Shown piece by piece: positions 6,516-59,546 of a DNA stretch of 59,546 nt. The stretch's first letter is position 1. Each line of letters opens with the position of its first letter. The position numbers and the translations under genes are program-made. This DNA comes from an uncultured Candidatus Saccharibacteria bacterium (GTDB taxonomy: Bacteria; Patescibacteriota; Minisyncoccia; UBA6257; 1-14-0-10-44-23). Location of the stretch: positions 1 to 59,546 of the forward strand of contig CAZXKC010000006.1 in assembly GCA_964641225.1 (NCBI GenBank). Reading direction: 5' to 3'. The notes beneath the pieces are model-generated. The model saw only the letters and a list, made by a program, of their open reading frames with translations, ran no database searches and was not told the DNA's origin.

Positions 6516-7493
6516 TTAGATCAAACCGATTTTTTGGTAGACCTCTTTGAGTTTTGCTTGGGCAATTTTGTTTGCTTTCTTTGAGCCGGCGTCAAAAATT
6601 TTGAGAACTTTTGCAGGATTCTTCATTAACTCTGCTTTTTTGGTGCGAATTGGGGCGAGGTACTCAGCTGTAACCTCGGCAACGTAGGTTTTAAACTGGC
6701 CGTAGTTCTTGCCGACGAATTCTGCTTCGAGAGCGGCGATTGTTTTACCGGTGATAGCAGTTGCAATGCGCAAAAGGTTGCTGATGCCTGGCTTTCCGGT
6801 TTCGTCGAATTTTACCTCGCTACCGGAGTCAGTAACTGCGCTCATGATTTTTTTCTTTACCACCTCGGGCTCGTCGTCTAAGAATAAGCAGCCGCTTGGT
6901 TGCGACTTGCTCATTTTTTTAAGCGGATCGGCGAGGCTCATTACGCGTGGAGTTTCGGTATGAAGTGCCTTGGGTTCAGAAAAGATTTCTCCGTAGCGGC
7001 CATTAAATTTACGTACGATTGTTCTGGTGAGCTCAAGATGCTGGTCCTGGTCGTCACCAACGGGCACAAAGACAGGATTGTATAGCATAACGTCGGCTGC
7101 CATTAAAACTGGGTAGTCAAAAAGGCCCGCATTGGCTTCCATTCGCTCACTTTTATCTTTATATTGCGTCATGCGGTTTAGCTCGCCCATTGGTGTGACC
7201 GTGTTAAATATCCATGAAAGTTGTGTATGCGCAGGAATTTTTGATTGAAGGAAGAGAACTGATTTTTTTGCCGTAAGACCCGCCGCGAGATATGTTGCCG
7301 CGAGTTCTTTGATTTGTTCAGATTGTTCTTTCGCAGAGGTTGGTTCGGTGAGTGCATGTAAATCAGCAAGCATAAAATAGCACCCATATTTGTCTGAGTT
7401 CTGAAGATCCACAAAGTTTTTGAGCGCACCAAAATAGTTGCCGATATGTAGGCGGCCGGAGGGCTGAATACCTGAAAGAATAACTGGTTTCAT
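6516..7493 (-). CDS. trpS: Tryptophan--tRNA ligase
   Basis: 325-aa ORF. N-terminal GIQPSGRLHIGNY (HIGH) and KMSKS motifs. Confidence 0.93.
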   Translation of the reverse strand: MKPVILSGIQPSGRLHIGNYFGALKNFVDLQNSDKYGCYFMLADLHALTEPTSAKEQSEQIKELAATYLAAGLTAKKSVLFLQSKIPAHTQLSWIFNTVTPMGELNRMTQYKDKSERMEANAGLFDYPVLMAADVMLYNPVFVPVGDDQDQHLELTRTIVRKFNGRYGEIFSEPKALHTETPRVMSLADPLKKMSKSQPSGCLFLDDEPEVVKKKIMSAVTDSGSEVKFDETGKPGISNLLRIATAITGKTIAALEAEFVGKNYGQFKTYVAEVTAEYLAPIRTKKAELMKNPAKVLKIFDAGSKKANKIAQAKLKEVYQKIGLI

Positions 7494-7642
7494 ATGAATA
7501 TGAGCTCTATGCGAGCTATAGGGATTTTAGCGTAAAAAGAGTCTAAATTCTAGGGTGTGCAGTAAAGGGCTTGGTCGGGTATACTTAATGAGGCATTCTA
7601 GGATTCTTTCACTGTTTCGAAGATGGAAAGGGAGGTGCGACG

Positions 7643-8386
7643 ATGTTTCAGCTTTCTTTGTGGGAGGCGACCGTCGTCGCACTGGTGCTTATTCACATGA
7701 GCATCATGTGTGTGACGCTCTATCTTCATAGGAGCCAAACTCACGGCGGAGTTCTCTTCCACCCGGTCGTTTCGCACGTTATGCGTTTCTGGTTGTGGCT
7801 TACTACCGGAACAGTAACTAGGGAATGGGTGCCGGTACATCTGGAGCACCATGAGGCGCCCGACAAGCCGGGCGACCCGCACAGTCCGCGCGTGCATGGC
7901 AAGGTGATGGCTTTGTTTTTCGCTCATGTGCTCTATCGCCGAGCTGCTCGCGATCCAGCCATTCTGGCAAAGTTCGAGGATCGTGTTCCTAGTGATTGGG
8001 TTGAGATGAAGCTGTACGCGAAACACAGTTGGTTGGGGATCTTGTTGTTGTTCTGTGTTCAGTTCATTTTGTTCGGCTTCATCGGAGTCATCATCTGGTT
8101 CAGCCAGCTAGCCGCTCTATTAGTTGGCACTACGATCATCAACGGATTCGGTCATCTGACAGGGTATCGTAACTATCCTTCACAGGATAATGATGCACGC
8201 AATCTCTTTCCGATAGACTTTATTTTGGGAGGAGAGGCTCTTCACGACAATCACCACGCTGCGCTTCGTTCACCGAAGTTGTCGCGAAGATGGTTCGAGT
8301 TCGACATCGGGTGGGCGTACATCCAATGTTTGCGCGTACTAGGACTGGCAAGGCTTCAGAAGATCGGAGATTCTCGATCCTGGTGA
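7643..8386 (+). CDS. Membrane fatty-acid (acyl-CoA/acyl-lipid delta-9-type) desaturase
   Basis: Three histidine boxes (HRSQTH, HLEHH..DPHSP, HDNHH) and hydrophobic segments. GGGAGGTG sits 6 nt before the ATG. Confidence 0.8.
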   Translation: MFQLSLWEATVVALVLIHMSIMCVTLYLHRSQTHGGVLFHPVVSHVMRFWLWLTTGTVTREWVPVHLEHHEAPDKPGDPHSPRVHGKVMALFFAHVLYRRAARDPAILAKFEDRVPSDWVEMKLYAKHSWLGILLLFCVQFILFGFIGVIIWFSQLAALLVGTTIINGFGHLTGYRNYPSQDNDARNLFPIDFILGGEALHDNHHAALRSPKLSRRWFEFDIGWAYIQCLRVLGLARLQKIGDSRSW

Positions 8387-8399
8387 CTTACAAGTTGCA

Positions 8400-8825
8400 T
8401 TGTTCCCGCCGCAGCCTCGCGCATTCTTGGTTCGACCAAGGGTGCGCGTTTGGCAATCTATCATACATGATATAATTTTTTTTATGGAGCTTTCAAAGAT
8501 GAAATGCATTCCGTGCGAGGTTGGTGGGACACCGCTTACTCCTCTTGAGATTGCAAAGTATGAAGCTGCTTTGGGTGCTACCGAGTGGAAAATTTTGTTT
8601 GATGTGCCTGAGGCTGGTAGGCTCGTCCGCCTGTATGAATTTGATGATTTTGCTGGTGTTATGAAATTTGTAAATAAGGTTGCCGATGTGGCCGAGGCAC
8701 ATGGCCATCATCCGAATATTCGTATATTTAGCTGGAATAAGCTCGAGTTAGAATTATTTACGCACAAAATTGGAGGATTGTCAGAGGCGGACTTTGTGAT
8801 GGCGGCTAAAATTGATGCAATCTAA
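8400..8825 (+). CDS. Pterin-4-alpha-carbinolamine dehydratase
   Basis: PCD-family core with the AEAHGHHPNI motif. The true start is probably the ATG at 8484 (MELSKMK..), because the first 28 codons are not protein-like. Confidence 0.8.
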   Translation: MFPPQPRAFLVRPRVRVWQSIIHDIIFFMELSKMKCIPCEVGGTPLTPLEIAKYEAALGATEWKILFDVPEAGRLVRLYEFDDFAGVMKFVNKVADVAEAHGHHPNIRIFSWNKLELELFTHKIGGLSEADFVMAAKIDAI

Positions 8826-8829
8826 AAAC

Positions 8830-8955
8830 GTCCCAAAGGGTTGCAGCTCGTTTCGCCTTCTGCAAGGCGCGAGCAAAAGACAATATGCCTGCATGGGCTT
8901 TTGCGAGTAACGCAGTCAGACGGTGAAACGAGCTTAGCAACGCAGGGAAAAGATA
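8830..8955 (-). ncRNA. Partial copy (3' hairpin domain only) of the repeated structured element
   Basis: Aligns to the 3' domain of the elements at 10060-10339 and 50382-50651 (GGGTTGC..CGTTTC..TCTGC // GCAG..GAAACG..GCAAC). It carries a C-G to U-A compensatory change (AGCTCGTTTC/GAAACGAGCT versus CCCGTTTCG/CGAAACGG). On the minus strand it ends in ACGTTTTT. Confidence 0.5.
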
Positions 8956-8990
8956 CCTTGAAAATGCGGCTATTTAGTTTGTCGCATTTC

Positions 8991-9764
8991 TTACTCAATC
9001 GTCAGCGTTCCTGTCATGCTCGTATTATAGTTGTCGCGGAATTTGTATGCGCCCGGGGCGAGTGAGCTTGTATATAAGACATATGAGGCGCCGACAGCAA
9101 GCACGTGTTCACCGCCTAATGTAGGGAAGATTACGGCGTGAACGCCTACGTCGTTATTTGTAAAGAATACGATGCTGCCTTGAGAGACCGTGAGTGCAGC
9201 AGGACTGAAGGCTCCATTTTTCATTCCAATGGTGTAGCTTTGATTGGCAGTTGCCGGTACGTTTGCTTCAAAGCGCACTTGGAATGGATTGCCATTAACA
9301 TCTTTGAGCTGAAGATCCTCTGCAGTTGAGAATACCTTGTTGCCGTTATCAGAATATAAGTTTGCGTAGTAAATACCTGCAGGGGAGAGTGCGACGTTTG
9401 CCTTAACGTTTGTGTGCGTGCCGCGCGAGAGCAGCGGGCTGGCGCCCAATACTGCTCCTTGGATTTCTTTCGGGCCATCATGGGCAACTGAGCGAATTAC
9501 GACAAAGCCGGCTTTTTCAAGAGTTGCTGAGGCAATTATCGTTGATGAGTTGGGCTTTTGATTTTTGACTACTAGAGCGTTGTTAATTTTTGTTGCTGTC
9601 GTTGTGGTCGGTTTCGTAGGAGTCGGCGCTGTTGTAGTAGGAGTTTGCGTAACTGGCTGTTGCGTTTCATCCGGCGGTAGTGCAGGGGAGCTGCCTTGCT
9701 GCATCAGAATAATAATGAAGACGATGACCGCGACTACCAGAAGCCACAATAATTTTTTATTCAT
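8991..9764 (-). CDS. Exported or membrane-anchored hypothetical protein with a Thr/Pro linker and a cupredoxin-like C-terminal domain
   Basis: 257 aa. N-terminal hydrophobic anchor, PT-rich linker, beta-rich C-terminus. The cupredoxin-like assignment is tentative. Confidence 0.6.
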   Translation of the reverse strand: MNKKLLWLLVVAVIVFIIILMQQGSSPALPPDETQQPVTQTPTTTAPTPTKPTTTTATKINNALVVKNQKPNSSTIIASATLEKAGFVVIRSVAHDGPKEIQGAVLGASPLLSRGTHTNVKANVALSPAGIYYANLYSDNGNKVFSTAEDLQLKDVNGNPFQVRFEANVPATANQSYTIGMKNGAFSPAALTVSQGSIVFFTNNDVGVHAVIFPTLGGEHVLAVGASYVLYTSSLAPGAYKFRDNYNTSMTGTLTIE

Positions 9765-9964: not shown

Positions 9965-10054
9965 ATGAAAAAGAAAAAGGCAAAAAAGACAGCGAAAAGG
10001 AGAACTGTTAAACGAACTGTAAAGCGAAAGACTGCAAAGAAGAGCCGTCGTTAG
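9965..10054 (+). CDS. Candidate 29-aa highly basic peptide (MKKKKAKKTAKRRTVKRTVKRKTAKKSRR)
   Basis: ATG-to-TAG frame read by hand; it is below the ORF-track cutoff. It lies directly 5' of the structured element. Coding status is uncertain. Confidence 0.25.
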   Translation: MKKKKAKKTAKRRTVKRTVKRKTAKKSRR

Positions 10055-10059
10055 AAAAA

Positions 10060-10339
10060 GACCCCTATCACGATATATACTTTATCCCGCGCCCTAGATA
10101 CATTTTCATTAGCTCAAGGAGAGACACCGCAAGGAGTAGAGTTTACTCTACTTCGAGGATGTCCCGACATAGAGATGGTGAAAATGTATCAGGTCCCGAA
10201 GGGTTGCTAGCCCGTTTCGTCGTCTGCGTTGTTACGAGTCATAAGCCGAAGTTAAAAAAATTCTGTCTTACGACTCGCGTCTAGCAGCCGAACGAAACGG
10301 ATCAGCAACGCGAGGAAAAGATTTATCGTGATAGGGGTC
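10060..10339 (+). ncRNA. Repeated structured RNA element, full copy 1 (~280 nt)
   Basis: A perfect 16-bp closing helix (GACCCCTATCACGATA / TATCGTGATAGGGGTC) encloses several internal helices. An 81-nt core (10149-10229) is identical to the reverse complement of 50487-50567. An intrinsic terminator follows on the plus strand. Confidence 0.6.
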
Positions 10340-10367
10340 GAGAGCCCTTACGGGCTCTTTTAATTTT
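10340..10367 (+). terminator. Rho-independent terminator after the structured element
   Basis: AGAGCCC-ttac-GGGCTCT followed by TTTAATTTT. The T-run is on the plus strand only. Confidence 0.6.
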
Positions 10368-12545
10368 CTAGACTTCGATAATCACGGGCAGAATCATGGG
10401 GCGGCGCAGTGTCTTGTTGTAGAGCGCTAAGCCGAGCTGGTCGCGAATAATGCCTTTGATGTAATCGCTCTCAGCTTCTTGGCGCACCTTGCTCTGATTT
10501 ACTTGGTTAACAAGCGTTTTTACTTTCAGACGAATGTCGCTCATGAGTGTGCCTTGATCCTTGAGATAGATAAAGCCGCGGCTGATGATGTCCGGATTTT
10601 TTACTAATTTACCGGTACGTTTTTCAATCGTGCAGATAACGACGATCATACCTTCTTGGGCAAGTAATTTGCGATCACGCAGCACCACGGCTTCGACGTC
10701 GCCGACGCCGAGTCCGTCGACCATGACGTAGGTCGAGTCGACATGCTGTTCGGTCGGGCGGATACCGTTTTCGGTAAGCTCAACAATCTGTCCGTTGTCG
10801 ACAACGATGACGCGGTCTTTTGGAATTCCGACGCTTTTCATGTTGTGATAGTTCGCGGCGCGCATATAGATGTGGCCGTGGACAGGGATGATGTACTTCG
10901 GCTTACAAAGCTTCGCAACGAGCGCCAAGTCCGGACCAGGGCAGTGACCTGAAGAGTGGATGTCTAAGTCGCTGTTGGTGTGTACTTCTGCGCCCTGACG
11001 GACGAGGTTGTCTTTGACGGCCTGCACCGAGCGTTCGTTACCCGGAATAACCGAGGAGCTGAAGATAACGGTATCGGTGTTTTTGATTTTGACGTACTTG
11101 TGTTCGCCATTAATGATGCGCATCAAGCCGGCGTTTTCCTGGCCCTGGGCACCGGTCGTTAGCACGAGAACCTTGTTGTCCTCATGCTTCTGGACCTCTT
11201 CGATTGGAATTAGCGAACCGTTTTTGTAGGACAAGTAGCCAAGCTGACGGGCGATTTCAAGGTTGTCTTTCATCGAGCGGCCGTTGATAGCAACTTTGCG
11301 ACCGATTTTTTCGGCGATCTTGATGATTTCCGCGAGACGCTCGATCATTGAGGCGAAGGTGGAAAGAATAATACGGCCCTCGGATTTGAGGAATAACTTC
11401 TCGATGTTCTCGATAACGATTTCTTCGGAGACGGTGTGGCCCTCCTCGTGAGCATTAGTCGAGTCGATAAGCAGTGAGTGCACGCCCTGGGTGCCGAGCC
11501 ATTCGTATTCTTGCAGGTTAAACGGGTTACCCTCGCGGTCGTACTCCAAACGGAAGTCGGCGAAGTGTACCATTTTGCCAACCGGAGTTTCGAGCATCAC
11601 GCCGGTAGTATCCGGGACAGTGTGCGCAACACCAAAGAATTCGGCCGTAAAGTGTTCGCTGATTTTGGAGCGGGTGTGGTTTTTGATAACTTCAAAACGC
11701 ATCTTCGGCGCGTTTGGCATTTCGTCTAAGCGTTTCTTCAAGATTTCGCGAATCAGCTGCGTTCCGTAAATGACCGGATTGCCAAGCTTTTCAAGCACGT
11801 AGGGGACTGCGCCAAAGTGGTCGTAGTGCGCATGCGTGATTATTATGCCTTTGATGTTCTTTTTCTTTTTTTCAAGATAGCTGATGTTCGGAATAATCCA
11901 GTCGATGCCCGGTGTGTCCTCCTCAGGGAACTGAATACCCATGTCGATGATAACGATTTCGTCGTTGTACTCAAAGAATGAGCAGTTGCGGCCGACCTCT
12001 TCGAGTCCACCAAGTGGAATCCAGTAGAGTGTGTCGCGTTTAAGGGGGACATCACCAGTTAGGGCGCCTTCTTTCTTAATGAACTTGCGTTCACTAAACA
12101 TCGTGATCATTTGCTGGCGCGGCATTCGATTGGTTCGATTTTTAATCGGTTTGTTCGAAAGCTCACGCGGCGTTATACCACCCTTATCGATTTGTGGGCG
12201 AGCAGCGTGTTCTTGGGCGCGTTGTGCCTGGTGCTGTTTTGCCTCTGCATCTGTAAAGACGCGGCCACCATCGATGTGAACGGCACGGCGCGTTTGCTGA
12301 ATTTTAAAGACGCCGGTTTTGATCGGCGTTTGCCCAGTCTCGCCCGGATGGCGATTCGAGGCGGACGGTTTTAGAGCCGCTTCGGCGTCGCTCGGCATCA
12401 GCGGTTTGCTGTTAGTGACTGAATGAGGCAGGTGGCTTGCGGCTGGCTTGCCCGCTGCGGCGGGACCACGACTTACGACTGATCGAAAGCGCGGGCGATT
12501 ATTAGGGCGCCGTCCTTTTGACGGCTCTTTTATATTAGGAGTCAT
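10368..12545 (-). CDS. rnj: Ribonuclease J with a ~165-aa basic, low-complexity N-terminal extension
   Basis: Metallo-beta-lactamase HAHYDH motif and beta-CASP/RNase J architecture from about aa 170. The start at 12545 is supported by a TAATAA hexamer 6 nt upstream. Confidence 0.88.
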   Translation of the reverse strand: MTPNIKEPSKGRRPNNRPRFRSVVSRGPAAAGKPAASHLPHSVTNSKPLMPSDAEAALKPSASNRHPGETGQTPIKTGVFKIQQTRRAVHIDGGRVFTDAEAKQHQAQRAQEHAARPQIDKGGITPRELSNKPIKNRTNRMPRQQMITMFSERKFIKKEGALTGDVPLKRDTLYWIPLGGLEEVGRNCSFFEYNDEIVIIDMGIQFPEEDTPGIDWIIPNISYLEKKKKNIKGIIITHAHYDHFGAVPYVLEKLGNPVIYGTQLIREILKKRLDEMPNAPKMRFEVIKNHTRSKISEHFTAEFFGVAHTVPDTTGVMLETPVGKMVHFADFRLEYDREGNPFNLQEYEWLGTQGVHSLLIDSTNAHEEGHTVSEEIVIENIEKLFLKSEGRIILSTFASMIERLAEIIKIAEKIGRKVAINGRSMKDNLEIARQLGYLSYKNGSLIPIEEVQKHEDNKVLVLTTGAQGQENAGLMRIINGEHKYVKIKNTDTVIFSSSVIPGNERSVQAVKDNLVRQGAEVHTNSDLDIHSSGHCPGPDLALVAKLCKPKYIIPVHGHIYMRAANYHNMKSVGIPKDRVIVVDNGQIVELTENGIRPTEQHVDSTYVMVDGLGVGDVEAVVLRDRKLLAQEGMIVVICTIEKRTGKLVKNPDIISRGFIYLKDQGTLMSDIRLKVKTLVNQVNQSKVRQEAESDYIKGIIRDQLGLALYNKTLRRPMILPVIIEV

Positions 12546-16617: not shown

Positions 16618-16662
16618 CTCCTTGTACTTCTTTTAGTATAGCGCTTTTAAAGATTTTGCAAC

Positions 16663-16682
16663 ATATCTCATATATGAGATAT
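16663..16682. repeat. 20-bp perfect palindrome ATATCTCATATATGAGATAT (variant of the recurrent motif)
   Basis: Read directly; it is its own reverse complement. Confidence 0.9.
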
Positions 16683-16746
16683 TCCCAGCGGTTTGGAAGG
16701 CTGTATTCTGATGGTTTTTGCTCGTTATTCAGGTTCAATTGCTTGC

Positions 16747-16768
16747 ATTATATCATATATGATATAAT
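16747..16768. repeat. 22-bp perfect palindrome ATTATATCATATATGATATAAT (recurrent motif copy 1), containing TGATATAAT
   Basis: Read directly. The right half is an extended -10 element 17 nt upstream of the HTH-murA ATG. Confidence 0.9.
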
Positions 16769-16785
16769 TATCTGACTTTACTACT

Positions 16786-24562: not shown

Positions 24563-24619
24563 GTTCTCCGTCGCATCTCTGCGACGCCCCCGAGCCAGGC
24601 CAATTCCCAGCGTTTCCAG

Positions 24620-24639
24620 TTATATCATATATGATATAA
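24620..24639. repeat. 20-bp perfect palindrome TTATATCATATATGATATAA (recurrent motif copy 2), with TGATATAAT reading into 24640
   Basis: Read directly. Shares the same 16-bp core as the other copies. Confidence 0.9.
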
Positions 24640-24646
24640 TAGTCAA

Positions 24647-30567: not shown

Positions 30568-30591
30568 GAATATATCATATATGATATATTC
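30568..30591. repeat. 24-bp perfect palindrome GAATATATCATATATGATATATTC (recurrent motif copy 3)
   Basis: Read directly. The ATG of the downstream ORF (30581) is in the palindrome centre. Confidence 0.9.
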
Positions 30592-31042
30592 TCAGCCGAT
30601 TATCGTGACGCTTGTTACCTCTGCTTTACCTATTATTGAGCGCGGTGCCGTGCCGCTCGGACTGGGTCTTGGGCTTTCGCCGTTTGCTACCTACGTTGTG
30701 GTTGTGCTGGGCAATATGCTGCCGGTGCTGCCACTACTTTTTTTCTTGAGATATATATCGCAGTGGGCGATAGAGCATATTCCGCTGGCGCAACGCGCGT
30801 TAACCTGGGTTTTTGATCATGTGCGCAGCAAGGAGGGTAAAAAAATGGAGGCGTTTGGGTTTGGTGCACTTGTGTTGTTAGTCGCAATTCCATCGCCAGT
30901 GACGGGAATATGGACCGCCAGCGTGGTTGCTTATCTTATTAAGATGCCGATTAAAAAAGCATTTTTTGCAATTTTGCTGGGCGTTTTGATCGCCACTGCG
31001 TTGCTCTTGGCAGGCACACTTGGTATCATTAAGCTACTTTAG
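30581..31042 (+). CDS. Small membrane protein, COG2426 / putative small multidrug export family
   Basis: 153 aa, 4 TM segments. The N-terminal LPIIERGAVPLGL motif resembles this family. Confidence 0.55.
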   Translation: MIYSQPIIVTLVTSALPIIERGAVPLGLGLGLSPFATYVVVVLGNMLPVLPLLFFLRYISQWAIEHIPLAQRALTWVFDHVRSKEGKKMEAFGFGALVLLVAIPSPVTGIWTASVVAYLIKMPIKKAFFAILLGVLIATALLLAGTLGIIKLL

Positions 31043-35187: not shown

Positions 35188-35205
35188 GGAAGTCATAAAA
35201 ACGAG

Positions 35206-35233
35206 CGCGCCCCAGGTCCTTGGCCTGGGGCGT
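35206..35233. terminator. Shared hairpin terminator between the convergent vanW-like and RT genes
   Basis: CGCCCCAGG-tccttgg-CCTGGGGCG. On the plus strand it is followed by TTCGCTATTT. Confidence 0.55.
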
Positions 35234-35236
35234 TCG

Positions 35237-36313
35237 CTATTTGAAGATGAATCCGTCGTCTGGCGGGTTGACGCAGTCGTCCCATGTATCCCAGAAGGTG
35301 TCTGGGTTGATGCGCATCCCAGATCCTTGGCGGAGTTGTTCTTCTTGGAATTTGAGTTTGCTGTAGAGTGAGTCGATCTCTCGGTCGAGCTGGTTCTTGC
35401 CTGGTTCACCGAGTTGCTTGAAAGTGCCGTGCAGGCCGTGAATCGCAGCGATGTGCTCGTAGCCCAGCTCTTCGTTGGCTCCATAGACAGCCTGGTAGAG
35501 GAGCCACCGAAGCTTTTTGCGGAAGTCTTGGCTAAGCGCCAGCCGTGCCGCTTTATGCCATCCGTTCCAGAAGAGGAGAATGCCGGTGATGCAAATCGGG
35601 TGTCCGGCGAACAGATCACCAGAGAACGACTTTTTCTCATTCAGCCTGAATCCAGCAGTCCGTACAGCGTCGCGGATCATTCGCTTAGCTGCCTCTGGAA
35701 TCCGGTTTCGTGAGGAGGCCGTGATGTCGTCGGCATACCGCGTGATCGTGATCGCGAAGCGGCGGGCGATTGCTTCGAGCTGCCGGTCAAGGCGAGCGTC
35801 GCAGTAGAGATTGAAGAGCGTGGGTGCCGATGGAGAGCCGAAGGGCAATCCACCGGACTCAGTCAGGCAGTGCTGAGCCAGGAAGTGACGCCAGAGCTCA
35901 ATCGATTCTCCCTGGCCGATTGCCCGCAAGCCGAGCCCGTCAATGATCTGGGCGAGTTCGATGCCCGGCGTGCTGTCGTATGCGTCTTTGATGTCGATGC
36001 TGTAGAAGAACCGATTACGCCAGTGTCGCTTCACGTTTGCTAGCGGTGACCTACCAGGCCAGAAGGCTGTTGCGATCGAGTCCTTGCGCTCATGAATGGT
36101 CCTGAAGCCGAACACGAGCGTGGAATTGAGATGTCTGTGCAACTTTCGCATCGCGAAGTTTGGCCGGTGTTCTCGTCGCACTTTGTTTTTGTGTGCGGCC
36201 TCAACGATTCTCCATGCAGGAGCCGGTACTTCGCTGATTTCACCGGTTTCCTTGTTTTGCCAAAAGCCCTTGAGGTCATCAAGGGCCCTGGTCGGATTAA
36301 ATACCAGGTCCAT
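35237..36313 (-). CDS. Reverse transcriptase, retron-like / defence-associated RT clade
   Basis: 358 aa. RT motifs in order: FYSIDIKDAYDS (motif A), GGLPFGSPSAPTLFNLY (B), ITRYADDITAS (C, YADD), GFRLNEKKS (D/E) and ICITGILL (VTG-like motif 7). GAGGTG RBS. No endonuclease, maturase or other fused domain. Confidence 0.85.
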   Translation of the reverse strand: MDLVFNPTRALDDLKGFWQNKETGEISEVPAPAWRIVEAAHKNKVRREHRPNFAMRKLHRHLNSTLVFGFRTIHERKDSIATAFWPGRSPLANVKRHWRNRFFYSIDIKDAYDSTPGIELAQIIDGLGLRAIGQGESIELWRHFLAQHCLTESGGLPFGSPSAPTLFNLYCDARLDRQLEAIARRFAITITRYADDITASSRNRIPEAAKRMIRDAVRTAGFRLNEKKSFSGDLFAGHPICITGILLFWNGWHKAARLALSQDFRKKLRWLLYQAVYGANEELGYEHIAAIHGLHGTFKQLGEPGKNQLDREIDSLYSKLKFQEEQLRQGSGMRINPDTFWDTWDDCVNPPDDGFIFK

Positions 36314-36397
36314 GATTCACCTCGGGTTTTGTGATGTGCCAGACAACGAGCCGTGCACGCATTGACCTTACCTCAGGAGAGGGCGTATTTGCAACTA

Positions 36398-36435
36398 TAA
36401 AAATAGTAAACCCTCCTGCCGATGCGACAGGAGGG
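36398..36435 (-). terminator. Intrinsic terminator-like hairpin between the upstream RNA region and the RT ORF
   Basis: CCCTCCTG-9 nt-CAGGAGGG followed on the minus strand by TTTACTATTTTT. Confidence 0.55.
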
Positions 36436-36761
36436 TGTGATGGCGCTAGGGGGTTATACGCGCATTACCCATGAGTGTTTGGATTTTGGGCACCCCGGTT
36501 GGGGTTGAGTTTCTAGCGTGAATCGCGACTGATCGCGGCGACGACCATCGTACTCCGATGTCCGATCTTCGCGAGGAGGTCGTCCTTCCTCGTCCTGATC
36601 CTGGTCGGAAACCATCTGCGCCGGCGATCTCGAACAAACGCTCCCTTGCGAGAGCAACACCAGCCACCAGCGTGACCAGCGAGAGCTTGCGCTCCAATGC
36701 CCGCATCCTCCGCTCACCTTACGCCACAAGCGGCCCATCTTGTCCGCTGCGAACCCCCTTC
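36398..36761 (-). ncRNA. Candidate RT-associated non-coding RNA region (~360 nt, GC-rich)
   Basis: A putative minus-strand promoter, TTGCGC-17 nt-TACATT, lies at 36796-36768. Many local hairpins, including GCTCTC-GCAA-GGGAGC, CGCGA-TCAG-TCGCG and AACCCC-AACC-GGGGTG. Three overlapping ORFs in different frames and strands are not protein-like. The 5' boundary is approximate. Confidence 0.35.
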
Positions 36762-36798
36762 ACATTTAATGTAACTTTTTTACTGAGGATGCGCAATC

Positions 36799-36827
36799 TT
36801 GCCTAGACTGTATTTTTTCTGTAGCAT
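36799..36827 (+). promoter_or_regulatory. Candidate promoter for tRNA-Thr (TTGCCT-17 nt-TAGCAT)
   Basis: Hexamers and spacing read directly. It would give a ~120-nt hairpin-rich leader before the tRNA. Confidence 0.3.
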
Positions 36828-36953
36828 ACAGTAACCGCGCCGATATAAGCCCGTCGTTCTCCAAAGGAGAACGAATCAGGGCGGGCTTGTCGGTAGATGA
36901 TACGGCTCCGCCATTTTGTAGCCGCACTCCAAGGAGTGCCCCGATAGTTCAGT

Positions 36954-37029
36954 GCCACCTTAGCTCAGCTGGTAGAGCAATACTTTCGTAAAGTAGAGGT
37001 CCCGAGTTCGACTCTCGGAGGTGGCTCCA
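36954..37029 (+). tRNA. tRNA-Thr (anticodon CGU), CCA encoded
   Basis: Hand-folded. Acceptor GCCACCT/AGGTGGC, D-arm GCTC-AGCTGGTA-GAGC, anticodon loop TTCGTAA, T-arm CCGAG-TTCGACT-CTCGG, then T-CCA. Confidence 0.88.
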
Positions 37030-48925: not shown

Positions 48926-48951
48926 AAAATATATCATATATGATATATTTT
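48926..48951. repeat. 26-bp perfect palindrome AAAATATATCATATATGATATATTTT (recurrent motif copy 4)
   Basis: Read directly. It lies between two convergent gene ends, with no gene start nearby. Confidence 0.9.
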
Positions 48952-48954
48952 CTT

Positions 48955-50359: not shown

Positions 50360-50381
50360 ATTTTTATAGTATACTGATTAA

Positions 50382-50651
50382 GACCCTATCTCACAATATC
50401 CTTGCCCCGTGTTGCTGTCCGTTTCTGCTCTCTGCTAGGAACGAGGAAAAGACAATATGCTTGAGCATAGGCTTTTCTGAGTAACGACGCAGACGACGAA
50501 ACGGGCTAGCAACCCTTCGGGACCTGATACATTTTCACCATCTCTATGTCGGGACATCCTCGAAGTAGGTAAACCTGCTCCTTGCAGTGTCCCTTCGTGA
50601 GTTGATGAAAATTGATCTAGGGCGTGGCCAATGTTATTGTGAGATAGGGTC
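50382..50651 (-). ncRNA. Repeated structured RNA element, full copy 2 (~270 nt)
   Basis: Perfect 17-bp closing helix (GACCCTATCTCACAATA / TATTGTGAGATAGGGTC). 50487-50567 is the exact reverse complement of 10149-10229. The variable hairpins differ from copy 1 but remain paired. Confidence 0.6.
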
Positions 50652-50705
50652 TAAGAGACGGCTGGGGAGTCGACAGCTGCCTACTAACGTTTTTACATTA
50701 TTACT

Positions 50706-54857: not shown

Positions 54858-54886
54858 AGTACCTTGTAATACAAGGTACTATGTGT
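54852..54886. promoter_or_regulatory. 35-bp near-perfect palindrome, candidate PadR operator
   Basis: ACACATAGTACCTTGTA-A-TACAAGGTACTATGTGT, with 17-bp arms around one central base. Contains ATGT/ACAT half-sites ~13 nt upstream of the PadR ATG. Confidence 0.55.
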
Positions 54887-55349
54887 GGAAAACTTTAACC
54901 GACTTATTATAAGTCTTTACTTTGGAACCGATACGAGAGTTTTTTTGTCCAGCAACAGAGCTGGCGCCCAGAAAATTAAAACCCAGAAAAATGGAAATGT
55001 GCACCGGTATGTGTACTATGGCTGTACGCGCAGTAGAGATATTAATTGTAAGAGTGGCTATCTTCGCGAAGAGCAATTAGTAGAACAGCTTGTAGAGCTA
55101 ATTGATAAAATGGATTTGGACGAGCTTGGTATGCGAGAGCAGTTAGAAAAAGAGGTTATAAAAAATCGCAAATTTATGAGAGGCGTGCTTGGGATCAAGA
55201 GTGAAAAAATAGATCAGCAAGATATTGATACCAGAAACTATGCAAAGTATGTCTTACGAGAGGGAAGTTTGCCGGAGAAACGGGAATTACTTATCAGTAT
55301 GAGAAGTCAGTTAGCGATCAAAAATAAAAAAGTTTATATGTTTTCATAG
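54885..55349 (+). pseudogene. C-terminal remnant of a large serine recombinase
   Basis: Only the zinc-ribbon/coiled-coil part (VHRYVYYGCTRSRDINCKSGYLREEQLVEQLVELI..) is present. The N-terminal resolvase catalytic domain is absent. Confidence 0.6.
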
Positions 55350-55398
55350 ATGAATTAGAAGTTTGATTTTCGGTCGGTGTGGGATATGATTATCAACA

Positions 55399-57642
55399 AT
55401 GGAATCATTTGATCGATTTGAAGCAATGCAGCCTAGGGGTTCGCGTTCTAGCGCCGTCTTTGAACAGGTGCGCCCAGGACGGAACGAACAAGAGAGAATT
55501 CTTGAGCAGTTCACTCCAGAAGAACGGAGTATTATTCGTTCACGACAAGAACTCCTTTCCTCATTAGCCTATTTTATAGGTAAGGATTTTAAGATTCCCA
55601 TTCTTTTAAATGAGCCAGGTGAGGGATGGCATTGGAATTGGGAAGAAAATCACATAAAAATAGATCCGAAAGACTTGCTGGAAAAACCGATTGACTATCT
55701 TCGTTTTGTTATTTCTCACGAAGCAGGTCACCGGCGTATTAGTCGTGCCGATGTATTACCGCGAGAAACCCTTGAGAAGCCGGGATTTTCTTTTATGCTT
55801 AATGCGATCGAGGATCCGCGGGACAATAATTTTGTTGCAGAGGCGTATCCAAGATTTCGTCAGCAGATGAAACTTGCTTATGAGCTTGACCAGCAGTTTG
55901 AGCAGGAGGCTAAAAAGGCTGCTAAGGAAGATCTTGGACAGACTCCACGTTTTGTGCAAGCCGGCTTGGAATACATCAAGCAGTGGTTTCGTGAGGTGCA
56001 GGAGCAAACAGCAGAAATAGATAAAGCTTTACCAGCAGAGGTCCAGGAAGTTGTCACAAAGACTTTAGCAGCTGCTCAGGATGCTTGGTGGCGATATCCT
56101 TCCAAGGAAGAGGCTAATAAAGGTGAAAAGATAATTAGAAAATATGCCACAAAGGTTGCCCAAATTGCCCTTAAGAAAGTTTGGCCTGAGTTTCAAAAAC
56201 TTGTGGAGCAGGATCAGAAAGATCAAGAAGCTCAACAGGCACTTGACCAAATGCAACAGCCCGAAGGCGATACTTCAGGTGAAGCTCAAGGCGAAGGGCA
56301 GCCACAGCCTAGTGGTGCCGGATCTAGGAGTCGTATCCCTGAACAGCTAAAGAAACAACTTTCCGAAGAAGAACAAAAAGAACTTGAAAGAGCAATTGAA
56401 CAAGCTATTGAAAGTGCTCAGGGTAAGGCGCAACAGGGTGGGCAGGGATCAGAAGATAGCTCTCAAGAGAGTCCCCAGGAAGGCGCGCCGTCTCAGGCTG
56501 GTCATGTTGATCAGAGTTCTTTTTCTGATGAACTTAAAAAGAAAATTCGTGAATATATCGAAAGCCTTACTGAAGATCAGCGTAAACAACTTGAGACTCA
56601 AGCCAGGCAAGCCATTAAAGATTTTGAGGACAAGCTCAATGAAGAATTACAAGGTAAATTTTCTCAAAGTGAAAGCGAAGAGTTAGGCCAAGGTTCAGAA
56701 TCTGAAGAAGGGCGAGAACCTAGCGATCAACGATCAGCTGGTGGTAGCGCTTTGCGAAGCGGGGAGTTTCCAGATAAACCAGTTGAAGTTGATCCTAGTG
56801 TACTTACCTACAGGGAGCGAGTAGAAAGACTTGTAAATTTGGATGAGAATTTATATGAAAAATATCGCCGCGAAGTTTTGCCGCTTATTGATAAGCTAGA
56901 ATCAGAACTTCGGGAAATTTTCGTTGATCGAGAGACTACCGCCTGGAAAGGTGGCTTTAGGGTAGGTAAACGCATAGATATTAAACGCAGGATACAGGAA
57001 AAAGCAAAGTCAATTTCTCCTGCAGAGAGTAAGGCTTGGCAAAAGCGTGAGTTGCCAGATAAAAATGATTACGCAATAACACTGCTCGTTGATTTATCGG
57101 GATCGATGCGAAAAGAAAAGCGTATTGAAGAAACGTTTAAGTCCGTCATTGTCCTAGTTGAAGTGCTTAACCGGCTAGGCGTTGATGTTGAGGTATTAGG
57201 ATTTAATGATGATTTGTATGAATACCAGAATTTCGGACAGCCGTTGTCAAAAAAGATACGCGAACATATGGGCGGCATGCCTAAAGAAGTTGACGATAGT
57301 TGCTGCAAGGGATGTGGTAATGAGCATAGCGAAACTGACTTAGGTTGGGCAACTAGTGTTGCTTCCCAGCGCTTAGCTCAGCAAAAAACTGCTCGTAAAA
57401 TTCTGATTACTTTATCAGACGGTATTTTGGCTGGATCATCTAAGCATCCTGGAAGAGATAATGAGATAGCAGGTGTTGTAAAGAATATTTTGAAGGATAC
57501 TGATATTCGTCCTGTTGGCCTTGGAGTTGGAACCGGAACGGAATCTATTACTCAACATTATCCAGGGGCTAAGTCAGTTTTAACTGTTAAAGAGATGGTC
57601 GACACATTTCCAGATTTGTTGCGTGAGATTATTGCTAAATAA
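55399..57642 (+). CDS. HExxH metallopeptidase-like / acidic linker / von Willebrand factor A (vWA) protein (CobT- or DUF2201-like)
   Basis: 747 aa. HEAGH at ~aa 107, a long E/Q/S-rich acidic middle region, and a C-terminal vWA domain with the MIDAS motif LLVDLSGSM. Confidence 0.75.
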   Translation: MESFDRFEAMQPRGSRSSAVFEQVRPGRNEQERILEQFTPEERSIIRSRQELLSSLAYFIGKDFKIPILLNEPGEGWHWNWEENHIKIDPKDLLEKPIDYLRFVISHEAGHRRISRADVLPRETLEKPGFSFMLNAIEDPRDNNFVAEAYPRFRQQMKLAYELDQQFEQEAKKAAKEDLGQTPRFVQAGLEYIKQWFREVQEQTAEIDKALPAEVQEVVTKTLAAAQDAWWRYPSKEEANKGEKIIRKYATKVAQIALKKVWPEFQKLVEQDQKDQEAQQALDQMQQPEGDTSGEAQGEGQPQPSGAGSRSRIPEQLKKQLSEEEQKELERAIEQAIESAQGKAQQGGQGSEDSSQESPQEGAPSQAGHVDQSSFSDELKKKIREYIESLTEDQRKQLETQARQAIKDFEDKLNEELQGKFSQSESEELGQGSESEEGREPSDQRSAGGSALRSGEFPDKPVEVDPSVLTYRERVERLVNLDENLYEKYRREVLPLIDKLESELREIFVDRETTAWKGGFRVGKRIDIKRRIQEKAKSISPAESKAWQKRELPDKNDYAITLLVDLSGSMRKEKRIEETFKSVIVLVEVLNRLGVDVEVLGFNDDLYEYQNFGQPLSKKIREHMGGMPKEVDDSCCKGCGNEHSETDLGWATSVASQRLAQQKTARKILITLSDGILAGSSKHPGRDNEIAGVVKNILKDTDIRPVGLGVGTGTESITQHYPGAKSVLTVKEMVDTFPDLLREIIAK

Positions 57643-57666
57643 GATAGTTTTTAGTAACATTTACCT

Positions 57667-58074
57667 ATGGTCACATATCCTGACAGTACCGGACTTTCAA
57701 CATTTTTGGAGCATACCCAGGGAAGCAAGGAGGTGAGTTTATTGATAAGTCCCGAAGTAGAGATTGCTGATCTTATTAAAGAACTTAGTCAGCGAGAATT
57801 TTTACCTCTTAAGGCATACGTTGATTTAAACACTCCCGGTAAGTATTTTATAGTTTTAGATTTGCAAAATGCAAAAGATTTATACGATATCGTCTGTCAG
57901 TATACGACTGGGCAGATTAGTGTTTTTGATATAAAAGGGCAGCAGTCTTTGTGGATAAATCCCAATTACGCCGAGACTTCACTTGTTGTTGTAATACCGC
58001 GTGAAAAGTTACCCGAAGCTGAAGCAACTGGCTTGCTGTTTCGTAATGCTGCCGGACTTACTCTTCAACTCTAA
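57667..58074 (+). CDS. Hypothetical protein between the vWA and AAA+ genes
   Basis: 135-aa ORF. No family recognised. Confidence 0.5.
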   Translation: MVTYPDSTGLSTFLEHTQGSKEVSLLISPEVEIADLIKELSQREFLPLKAYVDLNTPGKYFIVLDLQNAKDLYDIVCQYTTGQISVFDIKGQQSLWINPNYAETSLVVVIPREKLPEAEATGLLFRNAAGLTLQL

Positions 58075-58079
58075 AAGAT

Positions 58080-59546
58080 ATGCCTCGCGAACAATTTCAA
58101 GCACAACGAGCAGAGGGGGTTGATAAGAAGCTTCAACCAATTATTGAGACAGAGGGCTCCGTGTCTTATTTGGGTGTTGAATTGCCGAAGGCAAAAAATC
58201 GTGAGAATGCCCCCAAAAAAGAACAATACGCTGACTATATAAATGATAAATTTAGTCTTGAGCTTCAGCAGAAGATTGCTATTTCTTTACTTCAGGGTAG
58301 CGCAGTCCTTGTTGAGGGAGGAACGTCTATTGGCAAGACAACAACGGTGCGTAAGATGGCCTCTGATCTTGGTTGGGAGGTGCACTATGTGAACCTCAAC
58401 GGTGCAACCGATGTAGAAGATTTGATGGGTCGTTATATTCCAAATCCGCATCGACGCGGGGATACTGATCCTGAATATTCTTTTGCCGATGGTAAGGTTA
58501 CCTCCGGCCTTCGAGTGGAAGAGGGGAAAATAAAGGTAATCATTCTCGATGAGTATAATTCTGCCTCACCGAATATTCTTATTAGACTTCACGAAGTACT
58601 AGATGCTCTGAATCGTGACGGAGAAGTAGTTTTAGCCGAAGACGCTTCAGAGAAGTTGCGAGTTCAAAAAGCAGTTACTAAAGTTGTTGCTTTGGCTAAT
58701 CCTCCAGGTAAGGGCTATTTGCAACGTGAACCTATGGATCCTGCTCAGCTGCGAAGGTGGGTTTATATTAAGGAGGCAAGCGAGTTGCCCGATGAGACTT
58801 TTGCTTATTCAACAAGGTCACTGTTTTGTTTAGAGTCAGGCGAAACGCTTGCCCCAGAGCGAGCTTTTTTGCCGAGCAGACCCGAAGGCCCGCTGAGTCC
58901 CAAGGCGTTTGCCGAAATTCCAGGTATTGAGCAAATCATCGCAAAATATATCGAATTCCACCGGGGTGCAAAAGAGCTTCTTGCTTCTCGCAAGCTGGCC
59001 GCAGATCAACCGCAGGCGTTTACGTTCGACGATCGTGAGGAGCCGCGCCGTGTACGTGATTTCATTCGTCATTTTTATCGAGGTGATTTGAATGCTGTAT
59101 TTAAAACCGCCCTTCGTTATTATTATGCCGGTAAACTTCTCGATAGGGCAGATAAGGACAAGCTTGAGGAGCTTATCGCTAATGTTGAATACGTACCGCC
59201 GGTTAATACTAAACGCAAAGGAGCTGAGGAAGAAGCCGAAGAAACAGCCTTGCCTATTGCCGCCCGGGCCGCTGAGCTTGAAGCCCTACTCTCGGGTCGC
59301 AAGATTGAATTACCTGTTCCAGAACAACTAAAACTGGCTACCGAAATTCTTGGCAAAGAAAATGTTTTTGGATCGGCTGCCGTTGAGAAGGCCTTTGGCG
59401 TGCAAGTGAAAGAAATCCCGACGATTCCATTTAGTCGCGCAGAACTTGAGCAGGCTAGAAAACTTGAACAGATGCTCGTATTACGCATTAATAAGACTAA
59501 AGATGGTAAGCCGATGAGCATGGATGGAATAAGCAAAACTCTTATG
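58080..59546 (+). CDS. AAA+ ATPase (AAA_5: MoxR/CobS-like), 3'-partial at the window edge
   Basis: Not in the ORF track because it has no stop in the window. Hand-translated: 489 codons with no stop. Walker A EGGTSIGKTT, Walker B VIILDEYN, then ALANPPG..R. Confidence 0.75.
   Translation, partial: MPREQFQAQRAEGVDKKLQPIIETEGSVSYLGVELPKAKNRENAPKKEQYADYINDKFSLELQQKIAISLLQGSAVLVEGGTSIGKTTTVRKMASDLGWEVHYVNLNGATDVEDLMGRYIPNPHRRGDTDPEYSFADGKVTSGLRVEEGKIKVIILDEYNSASPNILIRLHEVLDALNRDGEVVLAEDASEKLRVQKAVTKVVALANPPGKGYLQREPMDPAQLRRWVYIKEASELPDETFAYSTRSLFCLESGETLAPERAFLPSRPEGPLSPKAFAEIPGIEQIIAKYIEFHRGAKELLASRKLAADQPQAFTFDDREEPRRVRDFIRHFYRGDLNAVFKTALRYYYAGKLLDRADKDKLEELIANVEYVPPVNTKRKGAEEEAEETALPIAARAAELEALLSGRKIELPVPEQLKLATEILGKENVFGSAAVEKAFGVQVKEIPTIPFSRAELEQARKLEQMLVLRINKTKDGKPMSMDGISKTLM

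Follow-up and report, generated by a model that had tools for sequence, protein, structure and literature searches.

The closest described counterparts of the element reported here are bacterial palindromic dispersed repeats, such as ERIC and Correia elements and, above all, Rickettsia palindromic elements (RPE). The latter are short, non-coding, palindromic sequences dispersed over intergenic positions or inserted in frame in unrelated housekeeping genes, where the encoded peptide is tolerated; ERIC/IRU and Correia (NEMIS) elements are transcribed within mRNAs and are expected to act via their double-stranded stems (RNase III/RNase E) and via promoter boxes at their ends (PMC10969869). The element in question occurs as two full copies and a partial one in a contig of 59,546 nucleotides from an uncultured Candidatus Saccharibacteria bacterium (CAZXKC010000006.1, assembly GCA_964641225.1), the whole of which is referred to as the window, and as further full copies in other genomes. 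It is mobile, present in several copies per genome, folded into a conserved branched structure with matched ends and strand-symmetric pairing, devoid of target-site duplications, and tolerated in coding sequence. It forms a new family within a kind of selfish element that is broadly known, similar to MITEs (transposable elements of the miniature inverted-repeat type), ERIC and RPE. In our reading, it probably represents a family of short palindromic repeats, found in a few Patescibacteria lineages (Paceibacteria/Harrisonbacteria-like members of the candidate phyla radiation, CPR), that are non-coding and mobile without being autonomous and whose fold, probably as a single strand, is required for spreading.

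As with RPE, no transposase is known for the element and in-frame insertion does occur, here in one of seven full copies (that of locus L009, 91 residues, predicted to form a disordered loop). Nonetheless, there is no sequence relationship between both families, their hosts belong to different phyla, the element is about twice as long (272 nt versus roughly 100-150 bp), and it is branched, with three helices at a junction, whereas RPE form a single hairpin. Moreover, with a single copy in a gene and most copies showing stops in every frame, it is not generally compatible with coding. A conserved encoded peptide, as RPE membership would entail, was not found either, the peptide in L009 having no homologue and the other copies having stops in that frame. 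With ERIC and Correia elements it shares self-pairing terminal inverted repeats, transcribed intergenic sites near gene ends and, at the end of copy 2, a -35-like box; those are, however, simple imperfect hairpins of 100-150 bp, while the element is larger and branched, with conserved internal loops. Correia elements have TA target duplications, whereas the element has none. REP/REPIN-RAYT, the ends of IS200/IS605 and attC sites resemble it in that structure is conserved over sequence, target-site duplications are lacking and pairing is needed for recognition, traits that fit the strand-symmetric covariation of the element. On the contrary, these sites are far smaller (~35-140 nt) and are tied to RAYT, TnpA or IntI, for which no gene was found among the open reading frames (ORFs) of the window or in the fetched loci, and IS200/IS605 needs a conserved target tetra- or pentanucleotide on the left flank, not seen at the copies of the element. 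By analogy, the element appears to work more like these structure-dependent, duplication-free systems.

The copies in the window were delimited by blastn, a repeat finder and two covariance models, R1, built from three full copies, and a second model, R2, with fold z-scores calculated against dinucleotide shuffles. They are the following:

10060 to 10339, plus strand: copy 1, full length, 280 nt, matched from model position 1 to the end with 305.9 bits (R1) and 282.6 bits (R2); fold z = -11.3

50381 to 50652, minus strand: copy 2, full length, 272 nt, 259.3 bits (R1) and 237.8 bits (R2); fold z = -8.2

8830 to 8975 (approximately), minus strand: copy 3, 5'-truncated and decayed, recognised by blastn, covariance model and fold (z = -3.25)

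50481 to 50568, minus strand: 88-nt tract 99% identical to 10148-10235, likely a gene-conversion tract (repeat finder and windowed identity)

Homology between both full copies, put forward in a preliminary description made from the window alone, was corroborated by blastn (81% identity over 252 nt, E = 1e-55), and the closing helices described there, GACCCCTATCACGATA/TATCGTGATAGGGGTC in copy 1 and AGACCCTATCTCACAAT/ATTGTGAGATAGGGTCT in copy 2, were recovered by the repeat finder. The third locus, said to hold the 3' hairpin domain, also proved real, its 105-nt alignment with copy 2 showing 78% identity (E = 1e-15). The covariance model matches it at 8841-8940(-), equivalent to model positions 143-247, and this intact 3' hairpin domain is accompanied by degenerate remains of the neighbouring parts, while the 5' part and most pairing outside the hairpin are gone.

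The identical core reported for copies 1 and 2 is likewise present, and extends over 88 nt (10148-10235 versus 50481-50568, 99% complementary by the repeat finder), yet it is not invariant in the family as had been claimed. All 60 central alignment columns match between copies 1 and 2, with only 15-25 of 30 matching in the flanking windows, whereas the copy of the related locus L007 agrees with copy 1 in only 49 of the same 60 columns. Since copies 1 and 2 match throughout and the L007 copy differs inside the tract, the core seems best explained by recent gene conversion between copies 1 and 2, and not by extreme constraint. The decay of copy 3, as read from its sequence, shows that the host does not maintain a copy after its insertion. 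Together, gene conversion and the decay of copy 3 suggest that selection acts on the fold while the element propagates, among lineages of active copies, and not at the individual resting sites.

All copies share a common architecture. A terminal helix of ~18 bp is followed by small internal loops, 3 bp and then 6 bp (CCCGCG/CGCGGG), making up an interrupted closing helix of ~27 bp overall in which the terminal repeats pair with each other, and inside it stand a 5' hairpin of ~100 nt, a 9-nt CCCnnnGGG mini-hairpin and a 3' hairpin of ~105 nt. In copy 1 these parts are placed as follows:

10060 to 10077, plus strand: left arm of the closing helix (terminal inverted repeat), paired with 10322-10339 (repeat finder, consensus structure)

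10322 to 10339, plus strand: right arm of the closing helix (repeat finder)

10086 to 10091, plus strand: inner closing helix CCCGCG, paired with CGCGAG at 10309-10314; CgCG...AACgcG is nearly invariant in the seven copies

10093 to 10193, plus strand: 5' hairpin domain of ~100 nt (helices 4-6), whose apex is a variable hairpin and whose internal loop has the invariant AC..AG

10195 to 10203, plus strand: junction mini-hairpin CCCGAAGGG, with CCCnnnGGGTT invariant in the seven copies

10204 to 10308, plus strand: 3' hairpin domain of ~105 nt (helices 8-10), with conserved internal-loop motifs TGCnTnGTTA and CnnGnCTnGCA and a variable tip

The covariation suggested by the first two copies is upheld in the family. 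The counts that follow are inflated, the four- and seven-copy alignments having been fitted to the structure, though by a large margin they exceed the controls: with four sequences, standard pairs make up 93.2% of cells and both sides are changed in 54 of 101 pairs, versus 18.6 ± 3.3 in shuffles, none of 500 reaching 54; with the seven sense rows, pairing is ~90% canonical and 76 of 101 pairs covary, versus 40 ± 3.7 in shuffles. In the four-sequence alignment helix 1 alone has 12 of its 18 pairs changed on both sides, and sliding the partner columns lowers pairing to 36-44%. Invariant or near-invariant letters, on the other side, gather at unpaired places (CgCG, AC..AG, CCCnnnGGGTT, TGCnTnGTTA, CnnGnCTnGCA and AACgcG), a clustering which implies that the element has polarity and sequence-specific parts.

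A functional RNA is expected to tolerate G-U and to avoid A-C on its own strand. The alignment shows G-U in 31 cells and A-C in 22 (p = 0.27), that is, no strand asymmetry of RNA type, and the small excess of G-U must be regarded as a fitting artefact because the antisense rows, when fitted to the same model, give 41 versus 20. Reverse strands also fold equally well (z = -12.5 for copy 1 and -9.6 for copy 2), copy 1 retains z = -9.9 under single-stranded DNA parameters, and the antisense covariance-model scores of the diverged copies equal their sense scores. Because of this absence of G-U bias and the equal antisense scores, the constraint is, to judge from the alignments, on Watson-Crick complementarity as such, on either strand. 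Regarding the host transcription units, the L009 copy lies inside a gene in sense orientation, L024:9108-9379 follows a co-directional gene, also in sense orientation, and L024:7109-7380, between two co-directional genes, is antisense to both according to its polar motifs. The remaining copies stand between convergent or divergent genes and are uninformative on orientation.

These observations bear on the reading advanced in the preliminary description, namely that helix-preserving divergence denotes a functional RNA. As a rival explanation, the element would be a structured non-coding RNA, belonging to a family of small-RNA genes or acting in cis as a regulatory element of untranslated regions (UTRs), with its fold and conserved loops selected by the host and its copies arising by duplication. 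The divergence itself stands, being seen in seven copies of 44-74% identity with ~90% canonical pairs, and the very strong covariation, the invariant unpaired motifs in internal loops and at the junction, and the location of all copies inside or beside transcription units would all suit an RNA; lacking an Rfam match, it would be a new family. A fixed RNA gene, however, is at odds with the different sites occupied, the copy within a gene and the antisense one. Apart from the antisense strand fitting the model equally and G-U not prevailing over A-C, no site is conserved between genomes and the distribution is patchy, one copy is antisense to both its neighbours and another is in frame inside an enzyme gene, copy 3 is decaying, and the element has neither promoter nor terminator of its own (the terminator belongs to a neighbouring mini-ORF). 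Thus, we consider the functional-RNA explanation unlikely, and a role as an RNA, on the present alignments, is unproven and putative only.

The family was enlarged by running R1 on ~1.07 Mb of fetched Patescibacteria loci, which yielded three full-length copies, L030:862-1132(-) with 118 bits, L009:7090-7363(+) with 103 bits and L024:9108-9379(+) with 76 bits, to which R2 added L024:7109-7380. In total, seven full copies of 271-280 nt in five genomes, with covariance-model E-values of 1e-22 to 1e-95, underlie the family statistics. Besides that of the window, the assemblies bearing the element are CAZJVT01, JAHFLF01 (601-kb contig), JBGOTK01 and JAUYKI01. Pairwise identity among them is 44-74%, copies of the same genome being closer (66-74%) than those of different genomes (44-57%), with the exception of the closely related window/L007 pair (66-73%).

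That no known RNA family matches the element, as first stated, was verified with Rfam 15, whose models include group I/II introns, ribozymes, HEARO, 6S and retron-like RNAs: at the gathering threshold only three tRNAs were found in the whole window, at E<=10 nothing relevant appeared in the loci of both full copies, and at E<=1 L009, L024 and L030 gave just tRNAs and chance matches. Searches for exact patterns, which cannot reach diverged copies and hence understate the distribution, gave chance matches only for the 3'-domain pattern in genome and metagenome contigs and for two patterns in viral contigs, while a conserved 19-mer was found, among genome contigs, in the L007 genome alone. No match was obtained by blastn in plasmid and phage collections, and no description of such repeats in Patescibacteria was found in the literature. 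A protein database search with a spurious internal ORF, aimed at translated copies, returned nothing; this ORF is not conserved, being frameshifted in L007 and without ATG in L030, so the element is non-coding and a small-peptide or toxin gene was ruled out. A template/variable repeat pair of a diversity-generating retroelement was also discarded, since the differences are not confined to adenines and indels lie on either side of the identical core.

Mobility is apparent from comparison with related genomes. The RNase J gene adjoining copy 1 has its nearest relatives in Patescibacteria metagenome-assembled genomes labelled Harrisonbacteria, Paceibacteria or Giovannonibacteria, together with some third-party annotation records labelled "Saccharibacteria", and the closest one (93% amino-acid identity) is in CAZJVT010000001.1, the L007 locus. 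L007 is collinear with the window over 3.2-23.2 kb and has one copy, at 77% identity to copy 1, lying at another site of the same intergenic region. In the window the order is a promoter-proximal conserved block, the mini-ORF, the element and a terminator, whereas in L007 the same block is followed by the element, the mini-ORF and the same terminator. With the element before the mini-ORF in one and after it in the other, each genome displays the empty site of the other, and, because the closing-helix arms are absent from these empty sites, the arms travel with the element, which also rules out insertion into a pre-existing hairpin.

No copy was present in 18 further loci of the same gene order, from three other species-level relatives; every element-bearing genome has its copies at different sites, and no site is conserved between genomes. 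Examination of the genomic context therefore does not bear out a fixed RNA gene. Copies can be dense, with two full and one partial in the 59.5 kb of the window and two within 13 kb in L024. An empty counterpart of copy 2 was sought via the GH130-like protein next to dgkA, for which the closest genome has no close homologue, so that no empty site was obtained for this copy. Strain variants of the window, sought by exact-protein look-up, gave either no record or short Logan contigs, two of which (L004 and L005) end inside copy 2, as expected from a repeat that breaks assemblies.

The terminal arms comprise 16-23 bp, are complementary in all seven copies and conform, over the terminal 18 nt, to the weak consensus AGAaCCTATCtCAATAAT. 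Between copies of one genome the ends differ, and yet they match each other within each copy, which, as far as their sequences tell, agrees better with intramolecular pairing than with recognition of a fixed double-stranded sequence by a protein. No flanking direct repeat of at least 2 bp was detected at any of the seven copies, including those with perfect terminal repeats, nor was a target-site duplication seen on comparing filled and empty sites of the PGI/PMI gene described below. Left flanks have no motif or tetranucleotide in common, and an IS200/IS605-type target motif was discarded on these grounds.

A classical MITE would be moved as double-stranded DNA by a DDE transposase binding the terminal inverted repeats, any duplications being very short or decayed and the internal pairing a by-product. 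The element is indeed short (<~500 bp) and non-coding, bears terminal inverted repeats with a weak consensus and shows dispersed presence/absence, and its size, copy number, intergenic location and presence/absence pattern are typical (PMC10969869). A recently duplicated MITE with target-site duplications and no structural conservation had been contemplated at the outset as what would undo the RNA reading; the mobility that it entails is real, but duplications are lacking in all seven copies and in the filled/empty comparison, and structure is conserved. In addition, ends differ between copies of one genome while matching within each copy, constraint is stronger in the interior than at the ends, opposite to what type II MITEs show, and no parent insertion sequence was found in ~1.3 Mb of fetched loci. 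Because the target-site duplication, one of the defining features, is lacking, the element is not filed as a strict MITE, and we hold this explanation to be quite unlikely.

Insertion in a coding sequence is documented by the L009 copy, which at 7089-7364 interrupts a PGI/PMI (SIS-domain) gene in frame, with a net gain of 273 nt and no stops in the host frame. The unfilled site in the window and in L007 reads ...GAC/GCT AGT ACG CTT/CTC CAG..., and the filled one ...GAC AGT G[GATCC...GGATC]T CTT CAG.... The host frame is the sole stop-free frame among the six of this copy; in other copies the same frame contains 0-11 stops, and most copies have stops in every frame. The 91-residue insert is exclusive to this protein among 27 homologues (the window, L007 and all the rest of the 26 others lacking it), sits 4 residues before the invariant PRQ motif and has no homologue among 5.8 billion proteins. 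An AlphaFold2 model of the protein gives pLDDT (per-residue model confidence) values of 27-38 over residues 142-231 (90 residues) and above 90 on both sides, the insert being thus predicted as a disordered loop. The same L009 protein (gene 6663-7970) has a second insertion, of 10 residues (FGLRQSSARQ, residues ~316-325), absent from the other aligned homologues.

This same copy could invite the idea of a small self-splicing or host-spliced intervening sequence, whose closing helix would join the splice sites and render insertion in genes or UTRs harmless: it interrupts a conserved enzyme gene shortly before an invariant motif, and the closing helix juxtaposes both ends. Nevertheless, group I and group II introns were rejected, as no model of these or of ribozymes matches at E<=10 and the ends have no conserved splice-site nucleotides. 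A length of 273 nt, multiple of three, with an open frame is expected if the insert is translated, as in RPE, and is not required for an intron, and one copy of the family is antisense to host transcription. Splicing is accordingly viewed as highly improbable.

A partner enzyme was sought among the ORFs of the window, and none was found, these being housekeeping apart from a retron-type reverse transcriptase and a weak serine-recombinase zinc-ribbon fragment. The reverse transcriptase (358 aa, 35237-36313, minus strand; Pfam RVT_1 1e-18, PADLOC RT_III-A 2e-26) lends some appeal to an RNA-mediated element, SINE-like (like a short interspersed nuclear element) or retron-derived, in which a folded transcript would be copied by a reverse transcriptase acting in trans and the cDNA integrated. 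The element does recall a retron msr-msd RNA, with ends pairing as a1/a2 do, 5' stem-loops followed by a long 3' hairpin and a similar total length, and copy 3 is 5'-truncated, as incomplete reverse transcription would yield. The enzyme gene, however, lies in a GC-rich island, with copy 1 at a distance of 25 kb and copy 2 at 14 kb, the structured region upstream of it, which is its own, has no similarity to the element by blastn, and neither sequence nor position provided any link between both. Unlike a retron RNA, the element is not adjacent to the reverse transcriptase, and is multi-copy, dispersed, found in both orientations and within a gene, and strand-symmetric in its pairing. One copy being antisense to host transcription, and ends being precise, with no tail and no variable duplication, also disagree with RNA-mediated spread. 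Hence, the retron resemblance is architectural only, and such a route appears very unlikely.

As regards the reverse transcriptase itself, RT_III-A, II-A and IX match it best in PADLOC (1e-25 to 1e-26). With its flanks it spans 35188-36953; it lies in an island of 54-60% GC versus ~48% for the window, it adjoins tRNA-Thr (36954-37029), and a structured non-coding stretch of 640 nt (z = -4.0) lies upstream; the locus is probably a horizontally acquired retron-like defence locus. In related Harrisonbacteria, L080 (19479-20880; also L079 and L081) contains a 340-aa reverse transcriptase beside a bAvd-like gene and adjoining the conserved ArgRS-IleRS-TrpRS-RNase J cluster, which suggests a diversity-generating retroelement; as this type comes besides the retron-type one, the group has reverse transcriptases of more than one type. 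The zinc-ribbon fragment is a 154-aa ORF at 54885-55349 (+) with a weak match to a recombinase zinc beta-ribbon (E = 0.0014, below the Pfam cut-off). It is followed by a 747-aa VWA-domain protein and a 135-aa protein without match (region 55399-58074) and by an ORF-free gap of 761 nt (58075-58835), and the region 54885-58835 may be the remnant of an integrated element.

Considering (i) the matched ends, (ii) the covariation without G-U bias and (iii) the lack of target-site duplications at all seven copies, we infer that the property under selection would be the fold of a single strand, which brings both ends together. Single-stranded DNA, e.g., on the lagging-strand template, would be the preferred candidate: since it does not favour G-T, it agrees most closely with the symmetry. 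The ends would next be cleaved and joined anew by a structure-specific enzyme provided in trans, as in REP/REPIN-RAYT, IS200/IS605 and integron attC. Effects on the host would be secondary: a co-transcribed fold would give a long double-stranded stem, a possible processing or stability site, an end of the element could supply a -35 box, and within coding sequence the element would be tolerated only as an open, disordered loop.

Several points weigh against this single-strand element. The single-stranded DNA mechanism is itself deduced from symmetry and missing duplications, and neither a transposase or recombinase partner nor a longer element with the same ends was found in the ~1.3 Mb of fetched loci. 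The family comprises only seven known copies. Every copy is old, with identity not above 74% for any pair outside the conversion tract, so any current activity is putative. Polar, invariant unpaired motifs suit a functional RNA or a specific protein-binding site better than a simple MITE, template switching from arm to arm could keep palindromes perfect without selection, and orientation relative to transcription can be scored for three copies only, two of them sense and one antisense. A bolder version of the single-strand reading, which we put forward as possible though doubtful, is that of an undescribed class of structure-defined mobile DNA in CPR, in which a branched unit of ~272 nt would be mobilised in folded single-stranded form, leaving no target-site duplication, and the enzyme would read the three-helix junction and the invariant loop motifs instead of the terminal sequence.

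The insertion sites lie a few bases from gene ends, and all copies are inside or next to transcription units. Copy 1 begins 5 nt past the stop of the mini-ORF. Copy 2, described from the start as just upstream of the dgkA promoter, ends 22 nt before the dgkA ATG and takes up 272 nt of the 346-nt interval that separates dgkA (-) from a divergent DUF378-like gene (+). Copy 3, between convergent genes, abuts one stop codon, and the PCD gene (ORF 8400-8825) owes its final codons, stop included, to this copy. Elsewhere, one of the L024 copies overlaps the stop codon of secG, the other begins 3 nt past that of a substrate-binding-protein (SBP) gene, and the L030 copy ends 3 nt from a tRNA-Gly. The L024 copies (7109-7380 and 9108-9379) are 66% identical, have opposite orientations and bracket the single SBP gene, a layout resembling a composite transposon that may be a coincidence in a compact genome. 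Host features adjoining copies 1 and 2 in the window are the following:

9965 to 10054, plus strand: mini-ORF of 29 codons, extremely rich in Lys/Arg (MKKKKAKKTAKRRTVKRTVKRKTAKKSRR), a host gene beside copy 1 and not part of the element

10340 to 10359, plus strand: intrinsic terminator of the mini-ORF transcription unit, a host feature

50368 to 50396, minus strand: promoter-like site, a consensus match only, with -35 TTGTGA in the right terminal repeat of copy 2, a 17-nt spacer and -10 TATACT in the flank

The basic mini-ORF preceding copy 1 was thus located as had been indicated, and it is conserved in L007 (~12337-12426, minus strand, 28 codons) together with the upstream block and the terminator; by its conservation, it probably encodes a real small basic protein. 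The terminator had been attributed to copy 1 itself, an assignment that has to be withdrawn, given that in L007 the orthologous terminator comes directly after the mini-ORF with no element in between. The -10 TATACT of the promoter-like site precedes the dgkA ATG by 8 nt. L007 has an extra segment of ~100 nt (~12192-12295), absent from the window, that separates the mini-ORF terminator from the stop codon of RNase J; it contains the inverted repeat GGTGAGG...CCCTCACC and may be a second small inserted element. In the window, a palindromic motif, (A)TATCATATATGATATA, recurs at six positions (8455-8479, 16662-16686, 16747-16771, 24619-24643, 30569-30593 and 48928-48952), mostly just upstream of gene starts, and may be a promoter or operator motif of the source organism.

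CPR genomes are very small and dense, their spacers measuring 0-100 nt. In them the element takes up entire promoter regions, provides stop codons and adds 91 residues to an enzyme, so even such compact genomes carry and tolerate selfish DNA, and mobile DNA is little described there. For genome annotation, it follows that repeats of this kind break assemblies and mimic structured RNA genes in covariation screens. If the bolder version stated above were true, the element would be comparable to attC or REPIN sites, though much larger, branched and also tolerable inside proteins. Its fold, kept through 50% sequence divergence, strand-symmetric and duplication-free, makes the family a clean system for structure-dependent, possibly single-strand, transposition without a visible transposase.

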